A DNA stretch of 64,000 bases from Dehalococcoidia bacterium (GTDB taxonomy: Bacteria > Chloroflexota > Dehalococcoidia > Lucifugimonadales > UBA2985). Positions 8,876-34,260 of this stretch are shown in pieces. Made by a program: the position numbers and the translations under genes. The notes beneath the pieces were generated by a model. The model did not search any database. It saw only the letters and a program-made list of their open reading frames with translations, and was not told where the DNA came from. The stretch covers positions 1,863,369-1,927,368 of the forward strand of contig OZ253588.1 in NCBI GenBank assembly GCA_965263185.1. The letters run 5' to 3'. Numbering within the stretch: position 1 is the stretch's first letter; the number at the start of each line of letters is the position of its first letter.

Positions 8876-8897
8876 AATAGGCGGCACTAGAGCCTGA

Positions 8898-9785: not shown

Positions 9786-9801
9786 TCCAGACCTCCTCTC
9801 T

Positions 9802-17277: not shown

Positions 17278-18449
17278 GCGGAGTCGCGGGGCGCGCCTTC
17301 CCTCTCCAGCCTGTTGGCGTCAACGACTGACTCAGTGTGATCGACGGTCTCGGCAGTGTGCAGTTGAGGCCCTGCAAGGAATTGGTCTTGCCCCATTCTC
17401 AGAACAGCGCATGACCCGTACAAGGCCGCTGCGCCACCGCTGCCCCCTCGACCATAAGAGAACTACTACTCATCCGTCTCCCTTCGCCTCTACCCCAGTC
17501 CATGAGCCAGCCGCAGGCATCGCGATGGTCCTGGACGGGGGCATACGTCCCCATCGGCGGCTGGATTGTAGCGGGAGGATGGCCCTCCAGAGGCCAGGGC
17601 TACCCCGGCATGGCGGCCAACGGCGGCGACTGGAAGCAGCCCTGGCGCCACGGCCGCGTGGGTCAACAGCCCCGGAAGGAGTGGCTGGGAGTAATCATTC
17701 CATGTGGGTGTACGCCGGAAACAGGGACGGGATGCCCCGCTGAGTGGAGCGCAAGATCGAGATGTATGCTCAGCGCCGGCAGGCCGACACGGAGATGAGA
17801 CGCGACTTGGGCCACCCAGGTGAGGTCGTCTCTCAAGTCGTGAATGCGCAGCGCAGCGGCCAATGGCGGCGGTTGTGAAGCGCTAAAAGGGATCAACGAC
17901 GATTAGGGCGCTGCCAGATCCATCGGAGGTCCTGGACGGCGAGGCGCTAAAAGGCAAACTTGATAGCGAGCCTATTGACGGGCTGCCCTGGCCACTGGCC
18001 TATATGAGGGTCCCCCCTCTTGGCATACTGAGCTGACTCTGGCGGGTCAACTAAAAGGGTCACGGTCGCTTACCTCCTTACCCCCCATTAGAACATCTGG
18101 ATTTTTCCCCCTGATTATAAACTCTCTTATATTATATCTGCGCGCGAGATGCTTTAACTCTCACACACACACACAGTTTGACCCTAACCCAGGCGTCTTC
18201 TCCCTCCACCACCGTCTTGGACAATCACTATCTCAGGGAGCTTATAAGCAGTAGGCTTATCCTCAGCGCGGCGAGAGGCGCGACGCCTCTGTCCAGTCTT
18301 GCGCTCCTGTTGGGCCTTGGCCTGCTGTTCAAGAATCTTCTACCAGCGCGCGTCTAAGTCCTCGGAGGGCGCGCCACTTTCACTCATACTCACACGCAAC
18401 CCGCAACCCGCTACTCTCTCACACACGCGCCGCTCACACTCAGGCACAT
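17278..18449 (-). repeat. Module copy Z: small ORF (18184-18449, internal stop), (TG)7, AT-rich tract and core
   Basis: Reverse-complement homologue of 54870-56121. Confidence 0.85.
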
Positions 18450-19057: not shown

Positions 19058-21847
19058 CTAGCGTTCCGATTCCTCCACCGACACCTGTTCTTGGAGACCT
19101 AGATCTGTGAGAGCTTGCCGCAACTCCAACTGGAAGCCTTGGGCCATACCAGCATCGACGCTAACTGAGAACTCGATGCCGACGCTCAAGCCATCTCCAG
19201 AGCGCAGCTTGGGCAGGATTCTCGTGCCGAGCCGGTTCCAGACCTCTGGTGGTACAGTGCCCCTAAGCTTTAGAGTGGTCTTTCGGCCTATGGGCGGGAC
19301 AGGTGGTACATGGGGGTCGGTTGGGGAGTCATCTGGCCCCGTTGGTGGCTCCACCGGGGGGGGTGGGGGCTCAATTGGAATCTGCGTCCCGCCTTCCTGG
19401 GCCGCCCGGAGTTGCTCAGCCTTGGCCTTGGTCAGTAGAAAGACCCCTGACTCAAAGGCTACCTCCTCCGCTCCTACCGGCTCTTTGTACCACACCCTCT
19501 CGTATTCGCCGTCACCCTTGTCTCCCGAAGCCAAGCCGAAATCTCCGTCTGACACGAACTCCACAATCCGCCGTCGAAGAACGGCGTCCGGGTCCATAAG
19601 CCGAGTCAACGCGCCATTTAGGAAGCTCTGGCGGAGGCTGGTGAGCGGCCAGGCTCCCGTATCCTTGAATGCGGGCGGCCAGTGTCGGTCGATGTACCCT
19701 GCGCCAACGGACTCGTTGAGCAAGGCCCCTGACTTCAACGCGGCAATAACGCGTCCGCAGAGCGTCTCACTTCCACTTGAATGGCCGGCGCCGAGGTCAA
19801 TGACCTTCAGCCCGTCCGCCGCCTGGGCATCGCTGAGCATCACGAAACGGTATCCGCCCCACACTTCGTCCTTTGCCGCCTCCTCCGCTTCCCTGACTCT
19901 GGCCTGCACTTCGACGCGATCCGCCTGGTCGAAATCAGCGCCTAGGAAGCCTTGTGAGACCTCCTGGGCCACACGTCGCCAGGCAAGCAACAATTCGACA
20001 CACTCTCTCAGCTCACGTCCGGGCTTCTTGGCGCACCACACCAGCGCCCCGGGATAGAGTCGCGGGGACCTGCCACGCTCCCTGGTCCACCGGCCAAGGC
20101 GTTCCACAAGCTGCCCACTCCCTTGCCACTCTTCTGTTGGATCCAAGATCACCAACGTCAGCTTTGGCGTGTCCTGGACCGCGTCGCCGTCCTCTGGGAA
20201 GTGGACTATAGAAATCGTTGCGCCGCGGGCGAATTCGCCTTCCACGAGCCTGCGAACAGCAGGTTTGACCTCCGTTTCCTCGTCAAGGGAGGCGCGCCGG
20301 TCGCTGACGACCTTCCGCAACGTCGCTTGATGATGGATGCGGTAGCCGTCCGTACCGACCCTGCGCATGAAGAAGCCAGACTTCTCCAGGGCAGAGGCGG
20401 CGTTGTCTACAGTAGTCGTCTCAACATCCGGCTCGCCGAGGGCGAAGCGCAACTCCGGCAGGTGGGCCACCTTGTCCACCTGTCCGCCGGAGGACTCGAA
20501 CAGAATCGCCGTGCCAACTCTGCGGTGAATGTCCCGTAGCGCCCCCTTGGTGTCTGCGTCCAAAGCCTTGCTGTGGGCTGTCTCCCCGGCAAGGTCTGCG
20601 TCGATAGCAACGTCCAAGCGGGACTCGCCCAACTGTCCCAGGACCACGGCTCGGAACTCCGGCACATGCAGCGGGGCCGATCCTAGCGTGATGAGCGGCT
20701 CGTTCCGGGCTTGGCGGAATTGCTCCCGCGAGGCCCAGGAAATCCACTGCGCCAGCATGGCCAACGCCCCACGGGTCTGCTGAAACTGGGTGAGGGCACG
20801 CCATTTGCGCTGGAAGACGGAGAGCGTCGCCGGGTGGAACGGATAACATGATTCAAAGCGCTTCCGAAGGAAGTCCCGCCCTCTGCTGCCGGTGGCCGCC
20901 GTATCCACGGCCGTCCACTCGGATGGGAGACGTGCGCTTCGCTCGAAGCACCAGTCGGCGTAAGCCTTCGCCACATTCTGGCGTACACGGTCACTGCCCA
21001 AGCTCTCGAACAGGCGGCGGCGCACGACCTCGCTGATCTCCGACTCGTCATTGGCAATCAGGTCCCGGGCAACGCGGCGCACTACCTTGGTGATTCGGTC
21101 CTGCCATTCCTGGTCCCACTCGGTCATCTCCACCTGGCTGCGGGGCAAGCTGATGACACCGGCCACCGTGGTCGCGCCAGTCGTGGCCACAGTCAGGTTT
21201 TGCAGGAAGGCGTGGAAGGAGTCGGCCATACCCCGGTGACGGTTGACGAAGTTGAGCACCTCATCGAACAGGAGGAGCACCGGCGCGTTTGCTTCGGCGA
21301 ACACCCGGGCCAGCGCCTCGGTTCCGGGCGGCGTGTTGCGGGCGGCATCCCCCAACGCGGCGACACCCGCATCTCCTGCAAGCTGGCGGGCCAGGTCTAT
21401 CCAGGGCGTCTCCCTCCCCTCGGACGGGTCCCAGGCGTTGCCGACGAATACTCCAACTCGGGCTTCGGGAGCCTCTGCTATCCCCGCTTCTCGTAGAAGC
21501 TCCGCGACGCCAGGAAGCTCGCCAGCCTTGCGCCCGGCGTTGGCGAGATGGTAGAGGGATGCGAGGGTGTGGGTCTTGCCGCCGCCGAACTGGGTTATCA
21601 GCGTCAGGATGGGCGCGGTGTTCTCCGTCCTACCGGACAAACGCCGCAGCACCATGCCGGAGTGCTCCGTCAGCGCACGGGTGAAGCAGGTGCGGGAGAA
21701 GAACTGCGCCGGGTCGCTGTAGTCCGGTGGCGCAGTCCCAGCCACCACCTGCTCCAAGGCGATGGCGAACTCGTCCGGGCTGAAGGACCGGCCTTCGCGG
21801 ACTTCCTTCCGGAGAGTTACTACTTTGTACCAAGGGTCAAGTGCCAT
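19058..21847 (-). CDS. DUF499 AAA+ ATPase
   Basis: N-terminus PWYKVVTLRKEVREG..DEFAIAL; Walker A TQFGGGKTH; Walker B LLLFDE; ESCYPFHP. Confidence 0.9.
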   Translation of the reverse strand: MALDPWYKVVTLRKEVREGRSFSPDEFAIALEQVVAGTAPPDYSDPAQFFSRTCFTRALTEHSGMVLRRLSGRTENTAPILTLITQFGGGKTHTLASLYHLANAGRKAGELPGVAELLREAGIAEAPEARVGVFVGNAWDPSEGRETPWIDLARQLAGDAGVAALGDAARNTPPGTEALARVFAEANAPVLLLFDEVLNFVNRHRGMADSFHAFLQNLTVATTGATTVAGVISLPRSQVEMTEWDQEWQDRITKVVRRVARDLIANDESEISEVVRRRLFESLGSDRVRQNVAKAYADWCFERSARLPSEWTAVDTAATGSRGRDFLRKRFESCYPFHPATLSVFQRKWRALTQFQQTRGALAMLAQWISWASREQFRQARNEPLITLGSAPLHVPEFRAVVLGQLGESRLDVAIDADLAGETAHSKALDADTKGALRDIHRRVGTAILFESSGGQVDKVAHLPELRFALGEPDVETTTVDNAASALEKSGFFMRRVGTDGYRIHHQATLRKVVSDRRASLDEETEVKPAVRRLVEGEFARGATISIVHFPEDGDAVQDTPKLTLVILDPTEEWQGSGQLVERLGRWTRERGRSPRLYPGALVWCAKKPGRELRECVELLLAWRRVAQEVSQGFLGADFDQADRVEVQARVREAEEAAKDEVWGGYRFVMLSDAQAADGLKVIDLGAGHSSGSETLCGRVIAALKSGALLNESVGAGYIDRHWPPAFKDTGAWPLTSLRQSFLNGALTRLMDPDAVLRRRIVEFVSDGDFGLASGDKGDGEYERVWYKEPVGAEEVAFESGVFLLTKAKAEQLRAAQEGGTQIPIEPPPPPVEPPTGPDDSPTDPHVPPVPPIGRKTTLKLRGTVPPEVWNRLGTRILPKLRSGDGLSVGIEFSVSVDAGMAQGFQLELRQALTDLGLQEQVSVEESER

Positions 21848-21849
21848 TT

Positions 21850-22707
21850 CTAAACTCCAAGCTTGAGATTGACCGCTCCCAGGTAACCGCTCATAACGAA
21901 ATTACTCCAAAGCAGCTTTTCGTTCAACTGGTTGATTATCGCCCACAAGAACTCCAGTTCTCGTTCTGGGCTATGAATCCAGATCTCGCTAGGTGACACG
22001 GGAAAGCCTTGTTCGATGGCTCTCTCGACTGGGCTCTCGAACGGAAGGGAGTCAACTGCTACAAACCCTTGCCCTAGAACGAATACGCCATCGACAAACA
22101 GATGGTTAAAGAACCCGCGCTCTCCCGGATTGGTGCTCCTGAGGTCGTCTAGCCCAAAGCTATCCTCTTTCGAGACATCCATCATCCAATTGAGGACCGT
22201 TGCAATCTTTGCAGGACCTTCGTAGGCAAAGATGAATGAATAGGGACGTGGATTCTTGACCATGCCTGTAGGATTGAAGCTCTGAGGATCGAATCGCGCC
22301 AAGCTCTTGATACGCTTGGCCACTGCGGCAGCGTCTCTGACGTCCTCCTTAGTCAAACGTGATTTGATCTCTATCGTTGATGAGACGGTTTCGATGAAGA
22401 AAAGGTCGATGCCAGCCGCCAAAGGAAGTTTCGGGTATCGCTTGTTGTGTATCACTACGTCGATTTGATTCCTAATCTCCCCTTCCTTAGTTTCTCCGTC
22501 GAAGATTTCCCCGGTGCTGACTCCCCACAGGTCCGAGATATTCTGCGCCAAGAACTCCCGAATGAACGCTTCCCGGATTAGCCCTCTGTTCAGGCCATGG
22601 TGGAACGATCTTGCTGCATTGCCTTCTGCTTCAAGTCGCCTTCTGATGCGGTCGAAATGCGACCGGAACAGTGTCATTGATGCCGTTTCCCCGGGTTGAG
22701 TTGTCAC
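21850..22707 (-). CDS. DUF6602-like protein, predicted PD-(D/E)xK nuclease fold
   Basis: RGLIREAFIREFL..STGEIFD..QIDVVIHN..P...IETVSSTIEIKSRL. Confidence 0.7.
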   Translation of the reverse strand: MTTQPGETASMTLFRSHFDRIRRRLEAEGNAARSFHHGLNRGLIREAFIREFLAQNISDLWGVSTGEIFDGETKEGEIRNQIDVVIHNKRYPKLPLAAGIDLFFIETVSSTIEIKSRLTKEDVRDAAAVAKRIKSLARFDPQSFNPTGMVKNPRPYSFIFAYEGPAKIATVLNWMMDVSKEDSFGLDDLRSTNPGERGFFNHLFVDGVFVLGQGFVAVDSLPFESPVERAIEQGFPVSPSEIWIHSPERELEFLWAIINQLNEKLLWSNFVMSGYLGAVNLKLGV

Positions 22708-22790
22708 TTGGTCACAGCCTCCAACGTCGCGTCACAAAGCATGCCTTCCTCGCTTATCTGAGAAAGGTGGGTGCGCTGACTTTGGCTAAG

Positions 22791-24493
22791 CCCGAATCCA
22801 CCGAAGGAGGGCGTCGGGTCAACGTCCTGAAGTGGCCAAAGGGCACTCCTCTGAATCTGGGATAATGGTTTTGTAACAACAAACCAGTCCCGGAAAAGGA
22901 GCACCCAATAGATGCTACCACGCCACCAACCCGACCGCATCCGCATCGCCTTCGACGACCACCGCCTGGTGGCCAATGCCGGGCTGATCCTTCCAGCCAC
23001 CCTCGCCCTGCGCCTTGGCCTGCCCCAACTGGTTGACCGGCGCCTGGACCTGGGCCATGCAAAAGGCAGAGCCAACACCGGTGACAAGATGATGACGCTG
23101 GTGGCCTCCGCCCTAGCCGGCGGAGATTGCATCGACGACGCCGATGTGCTGCGCGCCGGCGGGACCGCCCGCGTGCTCGGTTTCACGGCTAAGGCTCCCT
23201 CCACCCTGGGCGCCTTCCTGCGCAGCTTCAGGTGGGGCCATGTCCGCCAACTGGACCGGGTGAGCCGCGAGTTGCTGGCACGGGCATGGCAGGCCGGAGC
23301 CGGACCCGGCGACGCACCCTTGACTATCGACCTCGATTCCACCATCTGCGAGACCTACGGACTGGCCAAGGAGGGCGCCCGCCACCACGGCTACACCGGT
23401 GCGCGGGGCTATCACCCACTGCTGGCCGTCGCCGCCGGAACCGGAGACGTGCTGATGGCCCGCCTGCGCGAGGGCCGCGCCAACACTGCCCGCGGCGCAG
23501 CCCACTTCCTGCGTGAAACGGTGGGGCGGGTGCGCTACGCCGGGGCCAGGGGACAACTCACGGCGCGGGCCGACAGCGGCTTCTACGCTCATAGCGTGGT
23601 ATCCGTCTGCCGCAAGATGGATGTCCGCTTCTCCATCACCCTCCGCCAGTACAAAAGCCTGCACAATGTCATCGAGGCCATACCAGAAGAGGACTGGACT
23701 CCCATTCCCTACTGGATGGACGGCGCCGCCGATGTAGCCGAGACGACTTACACCCCCTTCCAGAGTGAGCCCGACGCCGCGCCGGCGCGGCTCATCGTCC
23801 GGCGGGTGAAGCCCACGCCCGGTTCCCAGTTGGCCCTCTTCGCCACCTACAGCTATCACGGCTTCATCACCGACCGCGATGGGGAGATGCTGGAACTGGA
23901 GGCTGATCATCGCCGTCACGCCGAGATCGAGAATGCGATACGCGACCTCAAGTACGGCGTCGGACTGAACCACATGCCGTCCGGCCGCTTCGCCGCCAAC
24001 GGCGCCTGGCTGGCGGTACAGGTGATGGCACACAACCTGGCCCGCTGGACAGCCCGCATCGGCCTGGGTCAGCAGATCGTGACCACCAAGACCCTCAGAC
24101 GACGGGTCTTTGCCTTGGCCGGACGGATCACCCGCTCGGCACGCCGATTGACCCTGCATCTTCCCCGGCGCTGGCCCTGGGAGGAGCAGTTCAGCCGCGC
24201 CCTGGCCCGGCTGCGAGCCATTCCACTCCCAGCCTGACGGCGCCCTCCGCCACTGACCCAACGTCCCCGCCAACTCGCACCAACCAGCTCCGCGGGAGTT
24301 CCCTGCTGCTTATTCCCTGGCCATCCGCACATCGCAGCTCCCCCAGATCGCCATTGGGACCCTGTGCGACAACTAAAGACCCCCCGCCGACCTCCCATCT
24401 ACCCCAATCGAGCCCGGACCATCGCTTTTGTAACTTCGAGGCCTCCTTCCAGTGTCCTCACGCCGTCCATCCGTGTCCATCGGTGGATTCGGG
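22791..24493 (+). mobile_element. IS1380-family copy 1 (transposase 22912-24237)
   Basis: TIR CCCGAATCCACCGA; 5-bp TSD CTAAG at 22786 and 24494; DLDST, RADSG, AEIENAIRDLK motifs. Confidence 0.93.
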
Positions 24494-24528
24494 CTAAGGA
24501 CAAGAATCGGTTTGCCTCCACACGTCCT

Positions 24529-24885
24529 TTAGGAGCTTGGCGGATGTGATATCCTGATTCTCCCGCCGCGTATAGTTACTACCGCACGTTCTTCCATTGC
24601 CTGGCGATGCCGTTCGATTACTTCAGCGACCAGCGCTATGCGTTGCTCGGCTGGCACGTCCGGCAACCGGACCAGTCCAGCGTGTGAGATATCGTGCAGG
24701 TAGATCAACTCACCAAAGTCGGTATCTATCGTAATCAGGACACGGTCCGTCGATTCCGCCAGCTCCAACAAAGTCTTGTCGCCAGGGTCAGGGCCCAAGG
24801 TCCTAGCCTCGATCACATCATGTCCGTCATTGCGGAGCCACTCCGCCAATCGGCGTCCCGCGCAACGATCTACAAGAAACCTCAT
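24529..24885 (-). CDS. DUF5615 PIN-like toxin
   Basis: MRFLVDRC..DKTLLELAE..RVLITIDTDFGEL; ATGA overlap with the upstream antitoxin. Confidence 0.85.
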   Translation of the reverse strand: MRFLVDRCAGRRLAEWLRNDGHDVIEARTLGPDPGDKTLLELAESTDRVLITIDTDFGELIYLHDISHAGLVRLPDVPAEQRIALVAEVIERHRQAMEERAVVTIRGGRIRISHPPSS

Positions 24886-25133
24886 GCTTCAGAAACCGAG
24901 ACCGGAGCAAGCGTGTCCCCTGCTATGACTGTGTGGGCATAGGCTATGCAGGCGCGGATGTCTTCAGGTTCCAATTCAGGGTAATCATCCAACACCTCCT
25001 GCTGGGTAACTCCCTGGCTCAGGAGGCTCAGAATGAGTTCTACGGATATCCGCATATCACGGATGATCGGCTTCCCGCCAAATACGTCGGGGCGGGCCGT
25101 GATGCGCTCTAGGAGTTTCCCGTTACCTGACAT
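24882..25133 (-). CDS. DUF433 antitoxin
   Basis: RITARPDVFGGKPIIRDMRISVELIL..YPELEPEDIRACIAYA. Confidence 0.9.
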   Translation of the reverse strand: MSGNGKLLERITARPDVFGGKPIIRDMRISVELILSLLSQGVTQQEVLDDYPELEPEDIRACIAYAHTVIAGDTLAPVSVSEA

Positions 25134-25176
25134 GTCTTCCCTCCTGGACGAGAGTATTTGCCTTCATTGAGCCTTC

Positions 25177-28100
25177 TCACCGCGGCACAGCCAGCAGCAT
25201 AGCGTCCAGCAGGCGCTTTTCCTCGCTGCCGCGAGGGTAGAGCGCTGTCAGGGCGTTGGCGAGGCGCAGAAAGTCGGGGCTGCGCTCCTGTTCAGCCCGC
25301 AGCAGGTTTCGTAGGGCCTGGCTGCGGCCCGACGCCTGCAACAGCATCGCGGCGTGGACCCGGTCCAGCGTCGTCGCTGACAGCGTAGGCTCTATACCGT
25401 CAGCCGTCACCGTCCCTGGTCTTCCGCGCCGCCGTGCCCGTCCCCGCACGGCAGGCGGCTCTTCCGGAAACAGGCTCAGTTGGAGAGAGGCGTTCGATGT
25501 GGCGTCCATCTCATCGGCTGCTGCGGCAACGCCAGACTCCCCAAAGAGTTGTTTCCCCCGCTCCGTGATGGGCAACAGCCGCACGACACCCTTCTCCGTC
25601 CTGATGATGCGTGACTCCCAGTCGTCTAGGTGGATCCCCAGGGGCTGGGCGAACCGACGCGCCACGTCGAAGGGCAGGCTGAATCCCGATGCTTGCTTGC
25701 GGGGCGTCTCGTCCTCTTCCGCCTCGTCATTCTCCTCGTCGTCGGGTTCAACCCCGTTGTCTGAGGAAGCGCCTTCCGACGTGCTCTGCATCGTCCAGAG
25801 GAACAGCGCCGTCAGGCGTGAGTCCTCCTCCAGTGCCCCCGCTGCCCCGTTGCGCGCCTGTGCCTCTGCCGTCCCCAGCACCTGCTCCAACGCCTCACGC
25901 CCTACCACCTCCCACACCCTCTCCAGGTACTCCGGAAGGTTGATCTCGCGGCCCTCCGCCGTCTCCACGCGAGAGTAGCGACTGTATATCTCCAATGCTG
26001 GTCCGACACAGGCGAACACCAAATCCGCGCCTCGGATGCCCTCGCCCTGCAGTCGCTGCATCCAGTCGGCGACGCGCTCCGGTAGCTTGCGGAGCACGTC
26101 CGGCCAATCGCCGACCGGGGCGTCCTCGGGCCGTGGGCGGCAGATGAGATGAACGCTGGTCGCCAAAGATGCAGTGTCTCGTGCGTTGATCCGAGAGGCA
26201 GATTCCGTAGCAATGGGCCAAGAGCCGGTCACCGTCCAGCCTCCTTTGACCATGCCGGCGAGCAGGGCTTCCCATCCTTCAGTGGTCTTGTGGGCAAAAA
26301 CGACAGAGCCGATGCCGTCCTCACTCAGGACGCGACGACCCTCCGCAAACACCTTTGCAATTGTATCCTCAAAGAATGCTGCATCCTTGGGTCGCCCCTC
26401 ATATTCATGGGATTGATTCCAGACGCATTCTTGGGTCTTAGGTGAAAGCGTATTGGTTGTATCAAAGGGGTCGCGTAGTAAAGGATGTCGTGGCAATGTG
26501 CGATTAAGCCAAACAAGAAAGAAGTCAGAGAGGTCTGCATAGGGAATCGCATCATAGTAGGGAGGATCAGTAAACCAGACTCCAGCTGCTTGATCAGGTA
26601 GGGGATGATTGGTTGCATCGGCAAGCTGAAGCTGGCCTAAGATGGCAGAGCGGCTGAATTCTACAACTTCGCAAACTCCACCAACACTTGATAGAAACAC
26701 TCCCCTCGCGTTGCTCTTTGGTGTAGATTCACAGAAATCCCACACTATAGGAAGAGCTTGGCGCGCAAAAACGTTTACCGGGTTTTCTGCAGTGCTTTCC
26801 CATCGAGCGAGCGAGTTATTCCCATCAGCCATCTTACCTAAGAGCAACGCGGTCAGTTCCTGAATAACACCTACTGATGGGTTCGCCATCGTCCCTACAA
26901 ACTTCACTAAGGCCGCTTTCTGTCTCGCTGTGAACAGGTCGCCGAAACTTGCCATTCCGTAGCGGGTCACAGCTGAGAGCCCTCGCGCGTTAGGGGAAGG
27001 ACGTATCGGGTTGAGCGGCTCGTCCGGTACAGGGCAGAGGCCTTGCCTACCGCCGCGCTCCCATTCATCCAGCATCTCTGCCACTCGCTCTTGCGCCCGG
27101 CGTACCGCAGCGTAGTCGGCATTAGTGGGCAGCCGATAGTGGCGTCCCTGCTCGCCAGGTTTCAAGGTCACCACCGCCGTCATGCGCGCCCCGCCGGTGC
27201 GGTTGCCCTGCTGGTCGAACACGGTGTCGGCACCGCCTCGCAGTACGGATAGCTGGGAGCGCACGCGCTCCGGCGGCAGCACGGCTCCACAGCAGGCGCA
27301 TGTTGCCCTGGCGCGTGACACAGTGCCAGCTGCCACCTCTCTATCGGACTCCGGCTCAAATATCTCGAGATCGATATACGGTGGCTGGTCGTTTGGCCGC
27401 TTCACCTCAGTCCGCAACGCCCATTTGCGGTTGGGCTTCCGGCACAGCCACATGGAACGCATCAGGGGAATCTCCGCGCCGCAGTTTGGCGACTCGCATC
27501 GCACCGTCCGCGCCCACAGGTAGGCGATGGGCGTCGCCCCGTCCGGGTCCTTGGGGTAGAGGTCTGCCAACTCCTTCTCGGCCTTCGCCTTGATTTCCTG
27601 TCCGACCTTGCGGAGCTCCTCAGCGAGTCTTGGCCCATGCCGGGGGATGTCCTCCAGCATCACCTTGAGGATGAGGCAGGCGACGGGATTGAGGTCGCTG
27701 GCGAAGGTCTCGCAGCCCAACCTCAGGGCTTCCAGGGGGATCGAGCCGCCCCCGGCGAAGGGGTCCACCACGAGGGGCGTCTCCTCCGGGTGAGCGGCCC
27801 GCACCAGTGCCCGGCCAGTCTCCACGTACTCCGCCTTGGCTGCGTTGTCCCAGTTGGCAAAGTCGGCGATGAACTTGAGCAGCGCTCGCCGCAAACCTTC
27901 GTCCGTCTTGACCTGTTCGTTCCAGCCGGATGGCCTGGTCTTCATCCCCAGCAGTGCTCGCCGTGCATCAGTCTTGAACGACGGCGGGCAGTTGGCGTCG
28001 CACGGGTCCGGCAGCAGCAACGCCATCAGCACCGCCCGCGACGACGCCAGTGGTCGCCGCGCCCACCATAGGTGCAGCGTCGAGGGGTGCCCATGCCGTA

Positions 28101-28185
28101 TCGACTTCTCCCGCGCTGCGTGCCGCGACACTTCCGCGATGGGAAAATCAACTTCGGCCAGGCGCTTGCATTCTTTGGGGATCAT
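25177..28185 (-). CDS. DUF1156 adenine-specific DNA methyltransferase
   Basis: TLHLWWARRPL (DUF1156), motif I DPFAGGGSIP, motif IV FTDPPYYD. Confidence 0.92.
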   Translation of the reverse strand: MIPKECKRLAEVDFPIAEVSRHAAREKSIRHGHPSTLHLWWARRPLASSRAVLMALLLPDPCDANCPPSFKTDARRALLGMKTRPSGWNEQVKTDEGLRRALLKFIADFANWDNAAKAEYVETGRALVRAAHPEETPLVVDPFAGGGSIPLEALRLGCETFASDLNPVACLILKVMLEDIPRHGPRLAEELRKVGQEIKAKAEKELADLYPKDPDGATPIAYLWARTVRCESPNCGAEIPLMRSMWLCRKPNRKWALRTEVKRPNDQPPYIDLEIFEPESDREVAAGTVSRARATCACCGAVLPPERVRSQLSVLRGGADTVFDQQGNRTGGARMTAVVTLKPGEQGRHYRLPTNADYAAVRRAQERVAEMLDEWERGGRQGLCPVPDEPLNPIRPSPNARGLSAVTRYGMASFGDLFTARQKAALVKFVGTMANPSVGVIQELTALLLGKMADGNNSLARWESTAENPVNVFARQALPIVWDFCESTPKSNARGVFLSSVGGVCEVVEFSRSAILGQLQLADATNHPLPDQAAGVWFTDPPYYDAIPYADLSDFFLVWLNRTLPRHPLLRDPFDTTNTLSPKTQECVWNQSHEYEGRPKDAAFFEDTIAKVFAEGRRVLSEDGIGSVVFAHKTTEGWEALLAGMVKGGWTVTGSWPIATESASRINARDTASLATSVHLICRPRPEDAPVGDWPDVLRKLPERVADWMQRLQGEGIRGADLVFACVGPALEIYSRYSRVETAEGREINLPEYLERVWEVVGREALEQVLGTAEAQARNGAAGALEEDSRLTALFLWTMQSTSEGASSDNGVEPDDEENDEAEEDETPRKQASGFSLPFDVARRFAQPLGIHLDDWESRIIRTEKGVVRLLPITERGKQLFGESGVAAAADEMDATSNASLQLSLFPEEPPAVRGRARRRGRPGTVTADGIEPTLSATTLDRVHAAMLLQASGRSQALRNLLRAEQERSPDFLRLANALTALYPRGSEEKRLLDAMLLAVPR

Positions 28186-28202
28186 TTGAAGCTTAGCCTA
28201 CC

Positions 28203-29657
28203 TCAAAACACTTCGGTGCTAGACGGTGGAGCATTGGTTCTTGAACGTGTCAATTCACGACTATTGCTAGTGTACTCCACACCGCGTATGTCCAATACTA
28301 CAATACTATCTAAGTCCAAACGCAGAGCAGGTTCATCGTAGGACATCGGGTCGTCATCATCTCCCAAACCATCCTCACTCCATTCAGGCACTTGCTCGAT
28401 CATAGGCAACTTTGAAGGCGGGGTGGTCCTGACGTACTCCAGTATAGATATTCCGTCGTCGTCATCTGTGTCCTCCCTGACAGGAGGTACATTTATCCTA
28501 AAGTTAACTATATGGGATTGATCGCGCGGTTCCACTCTACAAGCGTGGTTGAATAACACCACGTTGCGGCCGTCCCCACCTGTCTGTGATGAAGTGTAGA
28601 TCATACCGTCAAGGCGCGGCTCCACTTTGTTCGCTAGATATTCCGCTACGACCTGAGTGGTGAGGTATTCTACGGCCTCGTCCTGTGGCATCACAGGTTG
28701 GCTCAACTCGCTTACCAAGTCTCTTAGGAATTCCGCACGCGCTTTGCGTACGCCGTATTCGGGGTCAAAGTAGCTTCCTCCTACGTAAACCTCCTTCAGC
28801 GTGAGCAAGTCAAGCAGGCGCATAGGTCGCAACATCTCGAACTTGGCCAAAACGACGTAGCTACCCACCGGAGGACGGATCTCCGAGATGCAGGTGGATT
28901 TGTCCATAGCTCCGTAAAATACGGGAATGCCTTGGGCGTTCATCCTCCCACTCCTAGTCAGTCTTGATGGCGGTGGGCCAATTTGACTGGCAGGCGAAAT
29001 CAGCATTGCCTTGAGTTCAAGAGTAGACAGGGCCTGGCGCGCTCGCCAAATGAACCTGTTTTCGTCCTCTGGGCCAATTTCAAGGACTACTGGCCGACTG
29101 GGATATGCCCTGAGGGAGTTCAAGTCACCAAATATATCGTGCAGCATCCGTTCGGTGCTTCTGCTGAAGAACCTTGTCCGAGAACGGATTTCGGTACGAA
29201 ATGCATTCCAGGTCTCAGGGAACTTCCAGTCGTCGGTACTGGACTCCTCGTAGAACGCATCAGAGTCATATGGATTCTCTTCTCCCTCTCTCATAGCCTC
29301 ATATTGATAGCGGCCAAAGAGTAATGCACACACGTCGCCTGCTACCTGTTCGGTAAGGCCTGCAATGTCGGCAATAACACCCTCCACAGGCTGGCCTTCT
29401 CTATACCACTCCACTAGACGCTCACGCATTAACGCGTAATCCAAGGCGTCCGGCTCACTTGGAGTGAGTTCGAAATGTTCTTCCAGAACTGCATGGGTAA
29501 GATTGGCTAATTCCTCTAGCGTCAGCACCCCGCGCGTCTTACCACAGTAATTGCATTTGTCCGAAGTCCCTTCCTTTTTCACCTCGTCGGCCAGGAACTG
29601 GTCACCAATGCAGGTATGGCATATATGCTTAGCCTCACTGTCATGTATAGCGGTCAT
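28203..29657 (-). CDS. RES-domain protein with Cys-containing N-terminal domain
   Basis: CHTC..CNYC N-terminus; RARQ, SGRMNAQGIPVFYGA..ISEIRP, YTSSQ (R-E-S residues). Confidence 0.82.
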   Translation of the reverse strand: MTAIHDSEAKHICHTCIGDQFLADEVKKEGTSDKCNYCGKTRGVLTLEELANLTHAVLEEHFELTPSEPDALDYALMRERLVEWYREGQPVEGVIADIAGLTEQVAGDVCALLFGRYQYEAMREGEENPYDSDAFYEESSTDDWKFPETWNAFRTEIRSRTRFFSRSTERMLHDIFGDLNSLRAYPSRPVVLEIGPEDENRFIWRARQALSTLELKAMLISPASQIGPPPSRLTRSGRMNAQGIPVFYGAMDKSTCISEIRPPVGSYVVLAKFEMLRPMRLLDLLTLKEVYVGGSYFDPEYGVRKARAEFLRDLVSELSQPVMPQDEAVEYLTTQVVAEYLANKVEPRLDGMIYTSSQTGGDGRNVVLFNHACRVEPRDQSHIVNFRINVPPVREDTDDDDGISILEYVRTTPPSKLPMIEQVPEWSEDGLGDDDDPMSYDEPALRLDLDSIVVLDIRGVEYTSNSRELTRSRTNAPPSSTEVF

Positions 29658-32600
29658 TCTTTGGATCCCTTGTATCGTGCCCGCTCTTCCGCAATTCTCA
29701 TGGGCTTAGTCATGGCATCCACTTCCAGCCAGTAGTGCTGCACCTTGCTGACCTCATGCCAGGGGAAGCGGGCCGGATCCTCGATTGGCTCCTGTAGCTG
29801 CGGGTCGGCAGCGCAGTTGGTGACAACGTAGAGCCAGTAGCAGTCGCGGCGGTCCTCAGCCACGCGCCGCTCGTTGGGCGACAGCAGGATGGTGCCGGAC
29901 TCGGCGGCGAGGCCCTTCACCTCTATCAGGCGCAACTGACCCGACTCTACGTCGAGGCTGGTGACGTCGTAGCCCAGGTTCTTCTCGTGAACGTCGTACA
30001 CCTGGCGGCCCTGGGCGGTCTCGTACTCCATCACCACCCGCATGGCGGTCATCTCGGTCTCGGCGTTCGGACGCAGGCGCTTTATTTCGGGAGTCTCGCG
30101 CTCCGGATGGGGCATGACCAGGACGCTGGCCAGTCGTTCGACACCCTGAAGTGTGAGCGCTCTCTGCTGGGTGAGTTCACGCCGCCGCCGCTCCCGGCGC
30201 GCCATAGCCTCGTCGTGACGGGCTTCGGCCTGGGCCAAGCGGCCCTCTGCGCCTGTGACCTGCTTCTCCATCTCCTCAGAGGCGCGGCCTATTTCCTGGT
30301 CGAAGCGATTCAGCACCTCCTCGAGCGACATTTCGACATGATCGGCGATTCGGTCCACCTCTGCCACCCGCTCGGCGCGCACATCTTCGATGAAGGGAGT
30401 GAGCGCGTGCTCGTTCAGCCAATCGGTAGCCTCCACAAGCGAGGCCACGGTGGGAAGGCCCTCCGGAACGGCAGCCGGAGTCAGGTTGCCGAGTATCTCC
30501 GGTTCCCGGAGGCATGGCGCACTGCCGTCCGCTAGTTCCACGGTGAAGAGCCGCTCGTGGATCACATGCCCTAGGCCATCGACGACCCGCGCCCGGTAGA
30601 AATCGAGACGCGCTGGGGTCTCGTGGTCAAGAGAGTACAAACAAGCGCCGGCAGCAAAAGCGTCCCTGCTGGTTTCGACGCAGTGACGACGGAGAGCCTC
30701 GAAGAGTGGATGTCCGGGCGTGACCCATTCCAGGTTGTGCTCCTCCGCTGTGTCCCGATCCGTGGATAGGCGTGGATAGCGGGACACCAACTCGGTAAGA
30801 CTCCAGTCGGGATCGCGCTCATACTTCTTCAAGGCAGTCGGCGTCCGGCCCGGCTCGAAGGTGTGGGGCAAGTGGCGCACCGGGTTGAGGGTGAGGGATG
30901 CCTGCTCAGCGCTCTCCGATAGAAAGCGGGCTATGGATTCCGGCACCACCCGGCGCTCCTGGGCGCGGGCGCGGCGTTCGACCAGCATTTCCAGGTTGAG
31001 CTTTTTGGCGGCCAGACCTTCCAGCGCCGTCTGACAGATTTCACGGAAACGGCCCTCGTCAACATCCCTCAGCAGACGGTCTTCCAGGTCGGCGTCGCCC
31101 AGCTTGCCAGAGTAGTAGTCACGAAATACGCGGTCCACTTGGGCAGCAGGCAAGACCTCGCCAACCACGTTGAACACGCCGTCATCGTCGAGGGCGTCCC
31201 TGATTTCCTGAAGCTTGGTCAGGAGGCGTTGGAGCACGTGCCCTTCGATAGTGTTGGCAGCGACGAAGTTGAAGATGAGGCAGTCGAAGCGCTGGCCATA
31301 GCGGTGGATGCGCCCCATGCGCTGCTCCAGTCGGTTCGGGTTCCAGGGGATATCGTAGTTAAAGAGAATGTGGCAGCACTGGAGGTTGATTCCCTCTCCT
31401 GCCGCTTCGGTCGCCACCAAGACCTGGATGTTCCCGTCGCGGAACTGCTGTTCAGTGTAGAGACGGGAGCCCACCTCATCCCTTGAACCGGACCTCATGC
31501 CGCCGTGGATAGAGCCTACCCGGAAGCCCCAGGCCTTCAGCCTCTCCACGAGATAGTCCAGGGTATCCCTGAACTCAGTGAATATCAGCAGCCGTTGGTC
31601 CGGGTCTTCGAAGAACCCTTGCTCTTGCATGATGTCCTTGAGTCTGCTGAGCTTAGCCTCCTCACCCGATGCCTCGACAGTGGTTGCTTGGGCCGCAAGC
31701 TCCTTGAGCTCGGCGATCTCCTTGCGGACTTCGTCGGAGTTCCCTGCAAGCGTGACCGCCTCCAGCATCCGCTCCAGACGTTCGCGCTCGGTGTCCTCAA
31801 GCTCTTCCAGGTCCTCCCAGTCGGGAAGGCTCGGCGGCGCAGTCCGCGCCAAGTCTTGGGCCTGCTTTAGTCCCTCTTCCAGGCGATTGGCCCGGTTCTC
31901 AAGCGAGCGGCGCATCGCATGGGCGCTGGAGGCTAACCGTCGCTGGTACAAGGACATGAGGAAGCCGACGGCGCGAGCCCTGGGGTCGTCGCCCTGGGCC
32001 GCAGCGCGGGTGCTCTGCCGTTTCACGAACCGAGTAACCGCTTGGTACAACTCGAACTCGGCGTCGTCCATGGTGAAGCTGACCGTGTGTGTGATTCGCT
32101 TTGTGAACACGGGCTTGGCGGCCCAAGCGCCGTCTGGCTGGCGCTCAGGGAAGTAGACCATCGCCTCTTTCGTGCGGCGAAGGTAAAAGGGCGCTCGCCG
32201 CCGCTCCATTGCCTCCCTAATGGACTTTACGTCGGCATAGGCGTCTCGATCCAGCAGTTGTAGGAACAGCGTGAAGTTATGAGGGTCGCCCTTGTGAGGT
32301 GTAGCGGTGAGCAGCAGCATGTTGTCAGCGCTGTCCCGGAGCAGCTCACCCAGCCTGTAACGCTGGCTCTTGTGCGTCTCGTCCCGCGCCGACATGCGAT
32401 GGGCCTCGTCGACAATCACCAGGTCCCAACGCACCTGCCGTAGACCGGGAAGAATATCTTCGCGCTTGGCGAGGTCGAGGGACGTGATGGTCTGCTTCTG
32501 GTCGAGCCACTGGTTGACGCCGAACTGGTCTCGGATGTCGCCGCCCTTCAGGACGAAGAACCGCTCGTCGAACTTTTCTCTTAGCTCCCGCTGCCACTGG

Positions 32601-33091
32601 AAGGTCAGGTTCGCCGGGCACACAACAAGGACTCGCTCGGCCAGCCCCCGCAACTTGAGCTCGCGGATAAGCAGACCGGCCATGATGGTCTTACCGGCCC
32701 CAGCGTCATCTGCCAGCAGGAACCGTACGCTGGGGAGCTTAAGGAGATAGTCGTAGACGGCCTCAAGCTGGTGGGGTAGGGGATCCACCCGCGAGATGGA
32801 CAACCCGAAGTAGGGGTCGAACTCGTGGGCGATGCCGAGGGAATACGCCTGGAGGCCAAGGCGCAGGAGCCGTCCGTCGCTATTGTATGAAAGGGTGGGG
32901 TCGGCGATAACGAGGCTCGCGATGTCGGCTGAGGTCAGCGTAACACGCCGGAATCGCTCGGTGCGCTGCCCGACAAGGCCCGCCTCCACGGAACCCGGAC
33001 CGTTCGTGCGTACAGTCTCCACCCGCATCGGCTCGCTGAACAGCGGCCCAGTTAGCACCTGCCCTTCACAGATCGCGGTATCGATGGTCAA
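29654..33091 (-). CDS. SNF2-family helicase with C-terminal DUF3883-like nuclease domain
   Basis: LADDAGAGKT, VDEAH, TATPH, TEAAGEGINLQ, EQRMGRIHRYGQ; GYDVTS..IEVKG tail; TTG start with GGAGG RBS. Confidence 0.92.
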   Translation of the reverse strand: MTIDTAICEGQVLTGPLFSEPMRVETVRTNGPGSVEAGLVGQRTERFRRVTLTSADIASLVIADPTLSYNSDGRLLRLGLQAYSLGIAHEFDPYFGLSISRVDPLPHQLEAVYDYLLKLPSVRFLLADDAGAGKTIMAGLLIRELKLRGLAERVLVVCPANLTFQWQRELREKFDERFFVLKGGDIRDQFGVNQWLDQKQTITSLDLAKREDILPGLRQVRWDLVIVDEAHRMSARDETHKSQRYRLGELLRDSADNMLLLTATPHKGDPHNFTLFLQLLDRDAYADVKSIREAMERRRAPFYLRRTKEAMVYFPERQPDGAWAAKPVFTKRITHTVSFTMDDAEFELYQAVTRFVKRQSTRAAAQGDDPRARAVGFLMSLYQRRLASSAHAMRRSLENRANRLEEGLKQAQDLARTAPPSLPDWEDLEELEDTERERLERMLEAVTLAGNSDEVRKEIAELKELAAQATTVEASGEEAKLSRLKDIMQEQGFFEDPDQRLLIFTEFRDTLDYLVERLKAWGFRVGSIHGGMRSGSRDEVGSRLYTEQQFRDGNIQVLVATEAAGEGINLQCCHILFNYDIPWNPNRLEQRMGRIHRYGQRFDCLIFNFVAANTIEGHVLQRLLTKLQEIRDALDDDGVFNVVGEVLPAAQVDRVFRDYYSGKLGDADLEDRLLRDVDEGRFREICQTALEGLAAKKLNLEMLVERRARAQERRVVPESIARFLSESAEQASLTLNPVRHLPHTFEPGRTPTALKKYERDPDWSLTELVSRYPRLSTDRDTAEEHNLEWVTPGHPLFEALRRHCVETSRDAFAAGACLYSLDHETPARLDFYRARVVDGLGHVIHERLFTVELADGSAPCLREPEILGNLTPAAVPEGLPTVASLVEATDWLNEHALTPFIEDVRAERVAEVDRIADHVEMSLEEVLNRFDQEIGRASEEMEKQVTGAEGRLAQAEARHDEAMARRERRRRELTQQRALTLQGVERLASVLVMPHPERETPEIKRLRPNAETEMTAMRVVMEYETAQGRQVYDVHEKNLGYDVTSLDVESGQLRLIEVKGLAAESGTILLSPNERRVAEDRRDCYWLYVVTNCAADPQLQEPIEDPARFPWHEVSKVQHYWLEVDAMTKPMRIAEERARYKGSKE

Positions 33092-33094: not shown

Positions 33095-33725
33095 CTATGT
33101 CCTCCCTATCTGGTTCATCGAGATCCTGCGTTCACCATCGACAACCAGTGCGCTCGTGGGTTCCGCGATCCAATTGGGCATAATTGCCCGCAACGCGGCC
33201 AACTCCTCAAGGTCCTCGGATGAGAGTTTGCGCCCAATCACATCCAAGCTCGCCTCCACTTCGTCAGGCCCCAGCCACGACAGCGCACGAACCGCCTCAC
33301 CTGCGGTCGGTACGGTGCCGCCAGTTGCCAACGGGGGGCATGGCGCAAGCCCACCGTCAACTCGCCGAGCGTCAGCTTGCGATTGGGTCCGGAGGTCAGG
33401 TAAACCGACTGCACCGGCATCTGGGTGGTAAGTCCGAGGGCGTTCGCCGCAGCACCGCCACAAGGCACTATTGTCTCGCCCCATAGCGCCGACAGCGACG
33501 CGATCACCTTCTCGACGGCAGGCGGGCGAAGACCGAAACGGGTCTCCACGGGGCATACGTAGATGCCGTGGCAAACCCGCATCAAACTTCCTTTTTGGGC
33601 AAGACGGGACAACGCCTGGTCGATTGCTGCCTGGTTCCCAGGTGCAGCAGTACCTTCGGATGCAGCAGTGCGCCTTCGGGTAGTGTAGCGGCGTAGGCCA
33701 TGATCTGTTCCGGCGAACTCGGCAT
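33095..33725 (-). pseudogene. DUF6088 / AbiEi-like type IV antitoxin with two frameshifts (~33640, ~33310)
   Basis: Reassembled: MPSSPEQIMAYAATLPEG..LLHLGTR/AAIDQALSRL..GIYV..AANALGLTTQMP..RHAPRWQL/AGEAVRALSWLGP. Confidence 0.75.
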
Positions 33726-33790
33726 CGGCACAACTCCCCTTGAATGTCAGAATTGTAGCATCTACACTAACACTTATCAACGACGCCAAA

Positions 33791-34260
33791 TGTAGGTTGT
33801 CATCGATAATGGGACAACTCCGCCACCAGTTGCTTGAGTTCTACGTTCTCTCGCCTCAGCCCCTGAACCTCCTGCTGCGTGGCGTCCCGCACCATGTCGC
33901 GGGTCAACCTCTCCCTCCCAGCCTCCATGAACTCCTTCGTCCACGCATAGTAGGAGTGGGGCTTGATCCCCTCACGCCGGCACAGGTCACTCACTGTGAC
34001 CTCCCGGTGGAATCCCTCCAACACGATGCGGATCTTCTCCTCCGACGTGTACTTGCGCCGACTGGCAGCCTTCATCGTCCGCACGAAGGACCTGGTCTCC
34101 TCTGTCCGCTCCTCTGCGTGCACCGCCTTGGCTGTCTCTGTCTGGGACATTGTTGCTCCTCTCTATGAAGTACTCTACCTCATCCAGGGAGCTCACCCAA
34201 CCTCAACTCTCTCGGGTTTTTCTGCCCGTTCCAGTGTCCCATTGTCGCTGACAACCTACA
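33791..34260 (-). mobile_element. 470-bp IS3-B derivative bounded by two left-type IRs, containing truncated orfA (33800-34150)
   Basis: TGTAGGTTGTCATCGATAATGGGACA at 33791 and its inverse ending at 34260. Confidence 0.82.

Follow-up and report, generated by a model that had tools for sequence, protein, structure and literature searches.

The Hma system, made up of a helicase-nuclease, a DNA methylase and an ATPase (HmaA, HmaB and HmaC; Payne et al. 2021, PMC8565338), is also known as the Type-1 DUF499-centred BREX-related (BR) system (NAR 2026, PMC12839542). HmaA has been reported to act as a nickase and to give defence against T4 (Liu et al. 2024, PMC11232893), and the Type-1 BR helicase normally bears a NOV_C PD-(D/E)xK nuclease (PMC12839542, PMC11232893). 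DUF3780 is absent from Type-1 BR systems and present in Type-2 BR systems (PMC12839542), the latter corresponding to the restriction-like (RL) system of Gao et al. 2020. That Hma loci hold independent defence genes nested within them has already been described: embedded genes were reported in 62.7% of 1,485 Hma systems, 96.7% of them co-oriented (Payne et al. 2024, bioRxiv 10.1101/2024.01.29.577857), and insertions in 66.5% of hma loci (Liu et al. 2024, PMC11232893). Two single-gene defences are also relevant here, namely aRES, a stand-alone NAD+-depleting antiphage protein reported to defend alone (Osterman et al. 2026, bioRxiv 10.64898/2026.01.28.702374), and Damona, a DUF6602 anti-phage cassette from the chromosomal integrons of Vibrio (bioRxiv 10.1101/2024.07.02.601686).

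Gene content of the locus

The locus lies in a 64,000-nucleotide stretch of DNA (the window) from the 2.5 Mb, IS-rich, 97%-complete genome of a member of the Dehalococcoidia. It is an ordinary example of an Hma locus with the usual extra stand-alone defence genes, which has also been split by a recently jumped IS. Reading along the minus strand from 33091 to 19058, the order is hmaA, RES, hmaB, DUF433/DUF5615, an IS1380 element, DUF6602 and hmaC, and with the ORF list and a domain search no ORF of the operon was left without an assignment.

33095-33789, minus strand: DUF6088/AbiEi_4-like winged-helix gene upstream of hmaA, with two frameshifts relative to locus L032
29654-33091, minus strand: hmaA, 1145 aa, SNF2-rel_dom, Helicase_C and a C-terminal NOV_C PD-(D/E)xK domain (Pfam)
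28203-29657, minus strand: embedded aRES-type RES protein, 484 aa, zinc-ribbon/HEPN_RES_NTD1 N-terminal region and RES NAD+ phosphorylase domain
25177-28185, minus strand: hmaB, 1002 aa, DUF1156 N6-adenine-type DNA methyltransferase (DUF1156 E 2.4e-22)
24882-25133, minus strand: DUF433, putative antitoxin, 83 aa (PF04255 E 6.8e-24)
24529-24885, minus strand: DUF5615/Mut7-C/PIN-like putative toxin RNase, 118 aa (PF18480 E 3.3e-17)
22791-24493: IS1380-family element, 1703 bp, with terminal inverted repeats; transposase on the plus strand, 22912-24237
21850-22707, minus strand: Damona-like DUF6602 PD-(D/E)xK nuclease (PF20247 E 6.9e-16, 58.5 bits) with a NucC-like N-terminal domain
19058-21847, minus strand: hmaC, 929 aa, DUF499 ORC/Cdc6-like AAA+ ATPase (DUF499 E 5.8e-14)

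An earlier note on this DNA had given the same limits, and every gene that it named was found on the minus strand. The two nested toxin modules that it described are RES and DUF433/DUF5615, both confirmed between core genes, and the predicted nuclease that it placed next to DUF499 is the DUF6602 gene adjoining hmaC. Its outline of a methylation-based helicase/methylase/ATPase core with nested toxin-like and nuclease genes therefore stands, but the restriction-like frame of Gao et al. 2020 in which the outline was set does not.

Assignment of the core genes

The best PADLOC matches of all three core proteins were Hma models. HmaA scored 593.7 bits against the HmaA model (over 48-1091) versus 102 against PLD_Helicase, HmaB scored 370 bits against the HmaB model versus 142 against DUF1156_MTase, and HmaC scored 318 bits against the HmaC model (profile positions 1-818 of 941) versus 64 against the DUF499 model. 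The operational rule for Hma (Payne 2024) asks that each of the three genes occur once, that all lie on one strand and that no more than three embedded genes separate neighbours. Here they are single copies on the same strand, with one gene in the slot between hmaA and hmaB (A-B) and four ORFs (DUF433, DUF5615, the IS transposase and DUF6602) in that between hmaB and hmaC (B-C), one above the limit owing to the IS; an automated PADLOC run might therefore call the system incomplete. The core is very probably an Hma system, hmaA-hmaB-hmaC, with a decayed DUF6088 gene upstream and independent defence or toxin cassettes in both intergenic slots.

The motifs expected of each protein are present. 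HmaA has intact GAGKT (131-135), DEAH (228) and D...EVK (1042/1047...1057-1059) motifs; its C-terminal domain is NOV_C, as Pfam now calls DUF3883. HmaB has FAGGG at residue 143 and DPPY at residue 540, and includes a hypervariable block resembling a target-recognition domain (TRD) at about aa 390-520 (nt 27040-26600), which could not be aligned at the DNA level in any comparison made; across aa 400-520 HmaB is only 27-43% identical to its relatives. HmaC contains GGGKT (88-92, Walker A) and LLLFDE (191-196, Walker B), and its C-terminal 130 aa are 42-59% identical to relatives versus 82-94% for aa 1-520. Judging from protein families, on which all activities proposed for this locus are based, HmaB would methylate host DNA at sites read by the hypervariable target-recognition block, HmaC, as an ATPase of the ORC/Cdc6 kind whose C-terminus varies, would sense or load on DNA, and HmaA would translocate and nick unmodified invader DNA via its NOV_C nuclease.

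The RES protein of the A-B slot

The RES gene is single-copy in the genome, and its start shares 4 nt with the end of hmaA. The RES domain was identified with PF08808 (E 1.2e-16, 61.6 bits). The N-terminal region matched PF18870 along profile positions 2-128 of 131 (E 5.5e-4; its 20.7 bits fall short of Pfam's gathering score, 27.4), and the same profile was matched by 26 of 27 aligned family members, with a best E value of 4.7e-9. Residues invariant in the 27 sequences are C13/C16/C35/C38, R238, E259 and S356, the last three being the catalytic Arg, Glu and Ser (27/27). A Foldseek search of the RES model against the PDB gave nothing significant. The published definition of aRES is a protein of 300-600 aa with RES (PF08808) and PF18870 and without an operon partner (10.64898/2026.01.28.702374), and the gene, as far as domains and description allow the likeness to be drawn, fits it. 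When triggered, a protein of this type would be expected to convert NAD+ by phosphorolysis into nicotinamide and ADPR-1''-phosphate and to arrest the infected cell.

RES homologues are mostly found away from Hma: 68 of 80 had no Hma gene within 10 kb and no conserved partner, and across 79 loci the only recurrent neighbours were HmaA and HmaB, in a minority. In the RES tree embedded and non-embedded genes are interspersed, which forces at least five changes. Full-length homologues occur on plasmids of E. coli and Shigella (~34% identity) and of Enterobacter and Citrobacter (~31%).

The B-C slot and the IS1380 element

The DUF433 and DUF5615 genes overlap by 4 nt, the antitoxin-like gene lying upstream of the PIN-like one; the DUF5615 protein further matched Mut7-C (E 2.5e-6) and PIN_10 (E 2.4e-5). 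The DUF6602 protein, in which D83...E113-I-K115 are the catalytic-type residues, matched PD_DExK (E 1.1e-22) and NucC (E 2.7e-9) in PADLOC. The slot carries a putative toxin-antitoxin pair plus a Damona-like nuclease, the latter in this genome only. Against PADLOC-DB v2.0.0, RES, DUF433 and DUF5615 matched no model and DUF6602 matched generic nuclease models only (Cas-associated PD_DExK and NucC); therefore, none of the cargo here has a hit to a model listed as an HEC or PDC candidate.

The IS has terminal inverted repeats of 23 nt and a transposase recognised by NF033539 (326 bits, cut-off 180). It is bordered by a 5-bp target duplication, CTAAG (22786-22790 and 24494-24498), as are 26 of 35 copies by 5-bp duplications, and the genome holds at least 35 full-length copies, five of them 100% identical. 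The target was the 113-bp spacer between the DUF433/DUF5615 pair and DUF6602, and the empty site reconstructed without the IS contains no ORF, such that the insertion is intergenic and no gene was broken. Being intergenic and having a clean target duplication, the insertion is recent, the work of a recently active IS. As the element is transcribed against the operon, it probably uncouples DUF6602 and hmaC by a polar effect, cutting them off from the upstream promoter. A 213-aa ORF at 22704-23345 was rejected as a gene, being an artefact that reads into the IS.

The upstream DUF6088 gene and the edges of the module

DUF6088 was detected by Pfam (E 3e-18) on the ORF 33238-33789, and in a tblastn search the intact 217-aa homologue of L032 matched three reading frames of the window. 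Nucleotide identity to L032 starts at 33786, and IS3-family fragments border the module. The DUF6088 gene is an upstream member of the same conserved module, regulator-like and decayed here. This gene, the artefactual 213-aa ORF and the intergenic position of the IS are points absent from the earlier note. Given the frameshifts in DUF6088 and the presence of the IS, expression of the system as a single unit may have been lost.

Related loci and mosaic structure

The order HmaA-RES-HmaB-(DUF433/DUF5615)-HmaC was also found in the Dehalococcoidia loci L007, L012, L022, L032 and L038 and in the metagenome contig L122. A RES gene fills the A-B slot of ten loci, of which seven show the complete HmaA-RES-HmaB-HmaC order, and across this RES-bearing clade HmaA is 72% to 98% identical to that of the window. 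Two close Hma relatives, L102 (HmaA 84%) and L103 (77%), have no RES. DUF433 is kept in the B-C slot of L032, L012, L022, L007 and L102. DUF6602 was not found in this slot in any relative examined, and in the other genomes inspected it showed no linkage to Hma; among the loci compared, only the window has DUF6602 and the IS. In a survey based on HmaA and not selected for RES, other cargo comprised a CAP12-type TIR, AbiJ_NTD4, DUF4209 with NTase and DUF1828 in the A-B slot, and AAA_21, an SDH protease and HEPN in the B-C slot. L122, located via its RES gene, has AAA_21 and DUF4276 in the B-C slot.

As 68 of the 80 RES homologues have no Hma nearby and DUF6602 is unlinked to it in the other genomes examined, the sequence comparisons point to cargo that acts autonomously more than to effectors added to a single integrated system.

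Comparison of the loci disclosed a mosaic of divergent RES and HmaB between flanks of 92-100% identity, in which the first ~70 codons of RES travel with the hmaA segment; aRES alleles of different lineages share 35-75% identity. We suggest tentatively, as a possible but rather unlikely explanation, that the RES-plus-methylase centre is an exchangeable specificity/effector block, with hmaA (and ~70 RES codons), the toxin-antitoxin pair and hmaC as recombination anchors, so that lineages would swap aRES alleles and HmaB target-recognition blocks and keep the backbone. If true, this would be cassette-shuffling defence diversification and not simple cargo hitch-hiking.

Alternative explanations

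The earlier note took the locus for a variant of the Gao et al. 2020 RL (Type-2 BR) system with substituted parts, in which DUF3780 was lost and RES, the PIN-like protein and DUF6602 were recruited into one layered system. The DUF499, DUF1156 and SNF2 families are indeed common to the RL system, the low-scoring matches to RL models in PADLOC and NCBIfam reflect true but distant homology, and DUF3780 was missing as that note had said: PF12635 had no match in the whole genome, which is weak evidence of absence, as the search was silent in control genomes too. However, Hma models scored 3-6x above RL models, and the NCBIfam RL equivalogs (ATPase, methylase and PLD-helicase) were 6-13x under their cut-offs (NF042962, 90.6 bits, cut-off 1200; NF042963, 199.8 bits, cut-off 1000; NF042964, 168.4 bits, cut-off 1100). 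Moreover, the helicase bears NOV_C and not PLD, Type-1/Hma is by definition without DUF3780 (PMC12839542), and the slots of sister loci hold unrelated cargo, all of which makes an RL variant very improbable. Since Hma/Type-1 BR normally lacks DUF3780 and has the NOV_C nuclease on its helicase, nothing has been substituted in the core. The same note had made its reading depend on the accessory genes accompanying the core elsewhere; because RES and DUF433/DUF5615 both recur with it in relatives, they do not speak against that reading, but DUF6602 does not share this recurrence.

Within an Hma system, RES (perhaps with DUF433/DUF5615) could instead be an integrated second-line effector, triggered or licensed by this Hma lineage, as its place in the A-B slot of ten loci (seven whole-order) over an HmaA identity range of 72% to 98%, the overlap with the hmaA stop, suggestive of coupled translation, and the joint movement of its first codons with hmaA would have it. 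This is improbable given that most homologues have neither Hma nor a recurrent neighbour, that embedded and non-embedded genes are interspersed on the tree, that L102 and L103 do without RES, and that aRES proteins are reported to defend alone (10.64898/2026.01.28.702374). It is extremely improbable that the locus is a decaying remnant, left non-functional as a unit by the IS and the frameshifted DUF6088 gene in an IS-overrun genome. Such decay would agree with an oppositely oriented IS between the promoter-proximal genes and DUF6602-hmaC, with the many IS copies, five of them identical, in 2.5 Mb, and with the two DUF6088 frameshifts and flanking IS3-family fragments; against it, none of the core ORFs (1145, 1002 and 929 aa) or cargo ORFs is disrupted and their catalytic motifs are preserved, the insertion is intergenic and recent, hmaC could be transcribed from a promoter of its own or from one inside the DUF6602 cassette, and the frameshifts could be assembly errors. 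An Hma core with autonomous cargo thus remains the preferred reading.

Comparison with known systems

The main value of this analysis is a correction, the locus being filed as Hma/Type-1 BR with embedded cargo and not as a new restriction-like variant. It opens no long-standing question and is of modest interest; it adds a natural aRES-type case nested in the hmaA-hmaB slot and recurrent in uncultured Dehalococcoidia, and, in the hmaB-hmaC slot, a conserved DUF433/PIN pair, while the sharp mosaic on a near-identical backbone is a small natural experiment in effector/specificity exchange in defence operons.

The Gao et al. 2020 RL (Type-2 BR) system and this locus have homologous ATPases (DUF499), methylases (DUF1156) and SF2 helicase-nucleases in common, as well as a presumed RM-like logic; in that system DUF3780 is a gene by itself and the helicase bears a nuclease of the PLD type, whereas here the nuclease is NOV_C and DUF3780 is missing. 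The RES protein resembles aRES, compared by description, in its size (~480-500 aa), HEPN_RES_NTD1 and RES domains, conserved R/E/S, lack of an antitoxin partner and defence context, but it lies inside an Hma operon, and the nearest enterobacterial plasmid homologues found are only ~34% identical. DUF433 followed by PIN-like DUF5615, two small overlapping genes, resembles a type II toxin-antitoxin system and is, from sequence, a putative pair. Damona, compared by domain, shares DUF6602 and likewise has secondary matches to Cas PD_DExK and to NucC, the small endonuclease of CBASS; it differs in occurring in an integron or prophage and not in an Hma slot. The co-oriented nested defence genes and the varied slot cargo of sister loci are those of the guilt-by-embedding or Hma-embedded candidates (10.1101/2024.01.29.577857, PMC11232893). 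HmaC here is without the N-terminal HEPN of many Type-1 systems. With Hma the locus has in common three co-oriented genes for an SNF2 helicase-NOV_C, a DUF1156 N6-methyltransferase with a TRD insert and a DUF499 AAA+ ATPase, the variable HmaC C-terminus, the lack of DUF3780 and the presence of embedded genes at both junctions, A-B and B-C; there is no categorical difference, and what is specific to this locus is its cargo set (aRES, DUF433/DUF5615 and DUF6602) and the IS1380 element in the B-C slot.

Gene content of the locus

The locus is a tightly packed minus-strand operon, and ORF listing and profile searches bore out the gene list of the earlier note.

Features of the locus in window coordinates (hmaA to hmaC assigned by ORF listing and profile search)
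33095-33789, minus, DUF6088/AbiEi_4-like gene, upstream of hmaA
29654-33091, minus, hmaA, helicase-nuclease with SNF2-rel_dom, Helicase_C and NOV_C (old DUF3883) domains
28203-29657, minus, RES protein
25177-28185, minus, hmaB, DUF1156 methyltransferase
24882-25133, minus, DUF433 protein
24529-24885, minus, DUF5615/PIN-like protein
22791-24493, IS1380-family element, transposase on plus strand; 1703 bp, 23-nt terminal inverted repeats, CTAAG target duplication
22912-24237, plus, IS1380-family transposase
21850-22707, minus, DUF6602 nuclease
19058-21847, minus, hmaC, DUF499 ATPase

Overlaps of 4 nt occur at hmaA/RES and DUF433/DUF5615, and gaps of 17 nt and 2 nt separate RES from hmaB and DUF6602 from hmaC, respectively. 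Motifs are intact in HmaA (GAGKT, DEAH, and D...EVK in NOV_C), HmaB (FAGGG, DPPY), HmaC (GGGKT, LLLFDE) and the DUF6602 protein (D83...E113-x-K115). In the RES family R238, E259 and S356 are invariant, and a four-cysteine cluster is located at the N-terminus. A promoter and terminator scan, which gave sites not in excess over shuffled sequence, was set aside.

The DUF6088 gene is conserved with the module in the related loci L012, L019 and L032. It is intact (217 aa) in L032, the closest relative, and occupies three frames with two frameshifts in the window; decay of a regulator or faulty assembly may explain these. In L032, a long-read MAG, hmaA (6568-10004) is split into ORFs of 1002 and 153 aa and hmaC (15244-17796) stops at 850 aa, probably owing to homopolymer assembly errors rather than real decay.

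Assignment of the core genes

The best PADLOC-DB matches by far were the Hma models (HmaA 594, HmaB 370 and HmaC 318 bits), the models of the Gao restriction-like system being much weaker (PLD_Helicase 102, DUF1156_MTase 142 and DUF499 64 bits). The NCBIfam antiphage equivalogs were likewise far under their cut-offs, with 90.6 bits for the ATPase (DUF499_antiphage, cut-off 1200), 199.8 bits for the methylase (DUF1156_antiphage, 1000) and 168 bits for the helicase (phospholipD_antiphage, 1100). The proposal that the operon is a variant of the restriction-like system was therefore abandoned.

Cargo between the core genes

Hma, a helicase-methylase-ATPase operon, was defined in 2021 (PMC8565338). 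Embedded genes were reported in 62.7% of 1,485 Hma systems, 96.7% of them co-oriented, with defence seen for 7 of 9 cassettes tested (bioRxiv 10.1101/2024.01.29.577857); in separate work, 66.5% of hma loci had insertions (PMC11232893). Scanning genome contigs with RES yielded 80 loci, and the gene order, for which the earlier note had suggested a synteny search, recurs in Dehalococcoidia relatives. Local order was as in the window in seven Dehalococcoidia loci: HmaA-RES-HmaB-...-HmaC is carried by L007, L012, L022, L032 and L038, in L056 HmaA precedes RES, and in L018 HmaB follows it. In L019, HmaA lies on the RES contig and does not adjoin RES. The closest RES homologue of all (60% identity), on metagenome contig L122, is also placed between hmaA and hmaB.

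Without selection for RES, 401 genomes of the class were surveyed with HmaA; 86 gave matches at E≤1e-30, and about 45 of these matches span most of the protein. In twenty fetched loci the slots were empty or held other cargo, namely CAP12/Pycsar-type TIR, AbiJ_NTD4, DUF4209-nucleotidyltransferase and DUF1828 proteins between hmaA and hmaB, and AAA_21 ATPases, an SDH-type protease and HEPN between hmaB and hmaC. Such varied cargo is the published hotspot behaviour of Hma. The hmaA-hmaB cargo of L103 (3655-4794), L118/L119 (about 3704-4757) and L115 (3770-6073; all in reoriented copies) comprises the TIR protein, the AbiJ_NTD4 proteins and a 767-aa DUF7380-DUF4209-nucleotidyltransferase fusion, and L122 has an AAA_21 and DUF4276 pair in its hmaB-hmaC slot (8483-10439); these are candidate defence cassettes.

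In the hmaB-hmaC slot, DUF433/DUF5615 is kept in L032 (98% and 92% identity) and L012; L022 and L102 have more diverged DUF5615 matches, and in L007 DUF433 alone was detected. It is a putative toxin-antitoxin pair, judged solely by PIN/Mut7-C similarity and operon form, and none of the papers searched names the two families together. The DUF6602 gene is an addition of ~1 kb to this slot of the window. The family is rare in the class (12 of 401 genomes) and was beside Hma genes in none of 9 loci from other Dehalococcoidia; the sole other Hma-neighbouring case is a 61% homologue in L032, downstream of hmaC and convergent on the opposite strand. On these loci, a general DUF6602-Hma linkage in other Dehalococcoidia was rejected.

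The RES family is large (over 1,100 matches, about 490 aa long); among 27 aligned members the RES domain occurs in all and HEPN_RES_NTD1 in 26. No Hma homologue was found within 10 kb at 68 of the 80 RES loci, and as no partner recurred outside the Hma context among these 80, a conserved partner of RES was discarded. Full-length homologues on plasmids of E. coli and Shigella share about 34% identity (E 1e-66) and bear the annotation RES family NAD+ phosphorylase; those on Enterobacter and Citrobacter plasmids share about 31%. A PDB profile search with the family gave nothing at E≤1. An AlphaFold2 model (pLDDT 79.9, pTM 0.73), used in full, gave no Foldseek match in the PDB at E≤0.001, an uninformative outcome probably owing to the two-domain query. 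In two Dehalococcoidia MAGs (L029, about 3319-9834; L037, about 7857-9818) a RES homologue comes after an SNF2 helicase of another kind (28-29% identical to HmaA), with a distant DUF1156-like methylase (30%) upstream in L029, and a second helicase/methylase system may likewise host aRES-type genes.

Mosaic history of the module

Similarity to L032 runs from the DUF6088 gene (33786) to the hmaC stop (19064). The flanks outside this interval do not align, so a module of ~13 kb moves as a unit. Inside it, identity to L032 changes abruptly from segment to segment, in a mosaic.

Identity of the window to L032 along the module
DUF6088, hmaA and RES start (to about 29590): mostly 92-100% nucleotide identity
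Remaining RES (from about 29440): unalignable at the nucleotide level; 52% amino acid identity
hmaB: 67-90% nucleotide identity; TRD block unalignable
DUF433/DUF5615 pair: 94-97% nucleotide identity
hmaC: 92-100% nucleotide identity

Hma-embedded RES alleles are mutually 35-75% identical, and in a maximum-likelihood RES tree embedded and non-embedded alleles are interspersed, well-supported branches forcing at least five context changes. By its RES the window groups with L122, by its backbone with L032. Taken together, the mosaic, the divergent alleles and the conflict between the two groupings indicate that recombination has exchanged the operon centre. No other feature of the locus goes beyond the routine, and this one is the basis of a tentative and rather unlikely reading in which RES and the methylase form an exchangeable specificity/effector block between hmaA, the DUF433/DUF5615 pair and hmaC as recombination anchors.

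Insertion sequence and mobile elements

The genome contains at least 35 full-length copies of the IS1380-family element, five of them 100% identical and most others about 94%; 5-bp duplications flank 26 of 35, and NTTAG/CTAAG-like sites are favoured. The hit on the locus is recent. In the empty site rebuilt from the flanks, a spacer of 113 bp separates the stop of DUF5615 from the start of DUF6602, and no ORF there exceeds about 12 codons, so that the IS broke no gene and a 213-aa ORF (22704-23345), seemingly coupled to DUF6602, is an artefact. ISEcp1-like mobilisation of DUF6602 was also rejected, since this gene lies beyond the left end of the element, the 5-bp duplication is clean and the DUF433/DUF5615 pair, beyond the right end, keeps its position in relatives that lack the IS. 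The element reads against the direction of the operon and probably has a polar effect on DUF6602 and hmaC.

Further IS1380 copies lie in the window at about 40838-42509, 49612-51318, 53149-54865 and 56443-58167. For a Dehalococcoidia genome of only 2.5 Mb, the genome-wide load of this element is unusually heavy. IS3-family fragments bracket the module (HTH_Tnp_1 ORFs upstream, 33800-34774, minus; split rve integrase-core ORFs downstream, 15654-17263, plus), and the surrounding region is a mobile-element patchwork.

Comparison with known systems

The stand-alone aRES proteins described in a 2026 preprint by the Sorek laboratory have 300-600 aa and combine RES with PF18870, and three enterobacterial ones defend by turning NAD+ into nicotinamide and ADPR-1''-phosphate (10.64898/2026.01.28.702374). 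By domain content and length, the window RES protein falls under this operational definition. The DUF6602 protein matches two PADLOC-DB models, Cas-associated PD_DExK and NucC. Damona, a cassette of Vibrio integrons that acts against phages as a single gene, was reported with this set of matches (10.1101/2024.07.02.601686); the likeness is one of domain matches.

HmaA, which bears a NOV_C nickase domain, defends E. coli against T4 (PMC11232893). A 2026 survey renamed Hma the Type-1 DUF499-centred BREX-related system, reserved a stand-alone DUF3780 gene for Type-2, and described the methylase as carrying a TRD insert and the ATPase as having a C-terminal domain that is hypervariable (PMC12839542). 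Both are visible in the window proteins: identity falls to 27-43% at HmaB residues 400-520 (five close relatives) and to 42-59% over the C-terminal 130 residues of HmaC (six close relatives). Type-2 corresponds to the restriction-like system of Gao et al. 2020 that the earlier note cited. DUF3780 was undetected across the 97%-complete genome in a search that was silent in the control genomes too; with the Type-1 features present, this absence and the helicase-borne nuclease are the norm for the type and not substitutions. The interpretation given in the earlier note holds in part, for a methylation-based core with nested toxin-like and nuclease genes and not for the system named. The cited literature agrees with the PADLOC-DB and NCBIfam scores that the core is Hma, or Type-1 BREX-related, and the locus is such a system with an embedded aRES, a toxin-antitoxin pair, a Damona-like nuclease and a recent IS hit, the activities being those predicted from the protein families.
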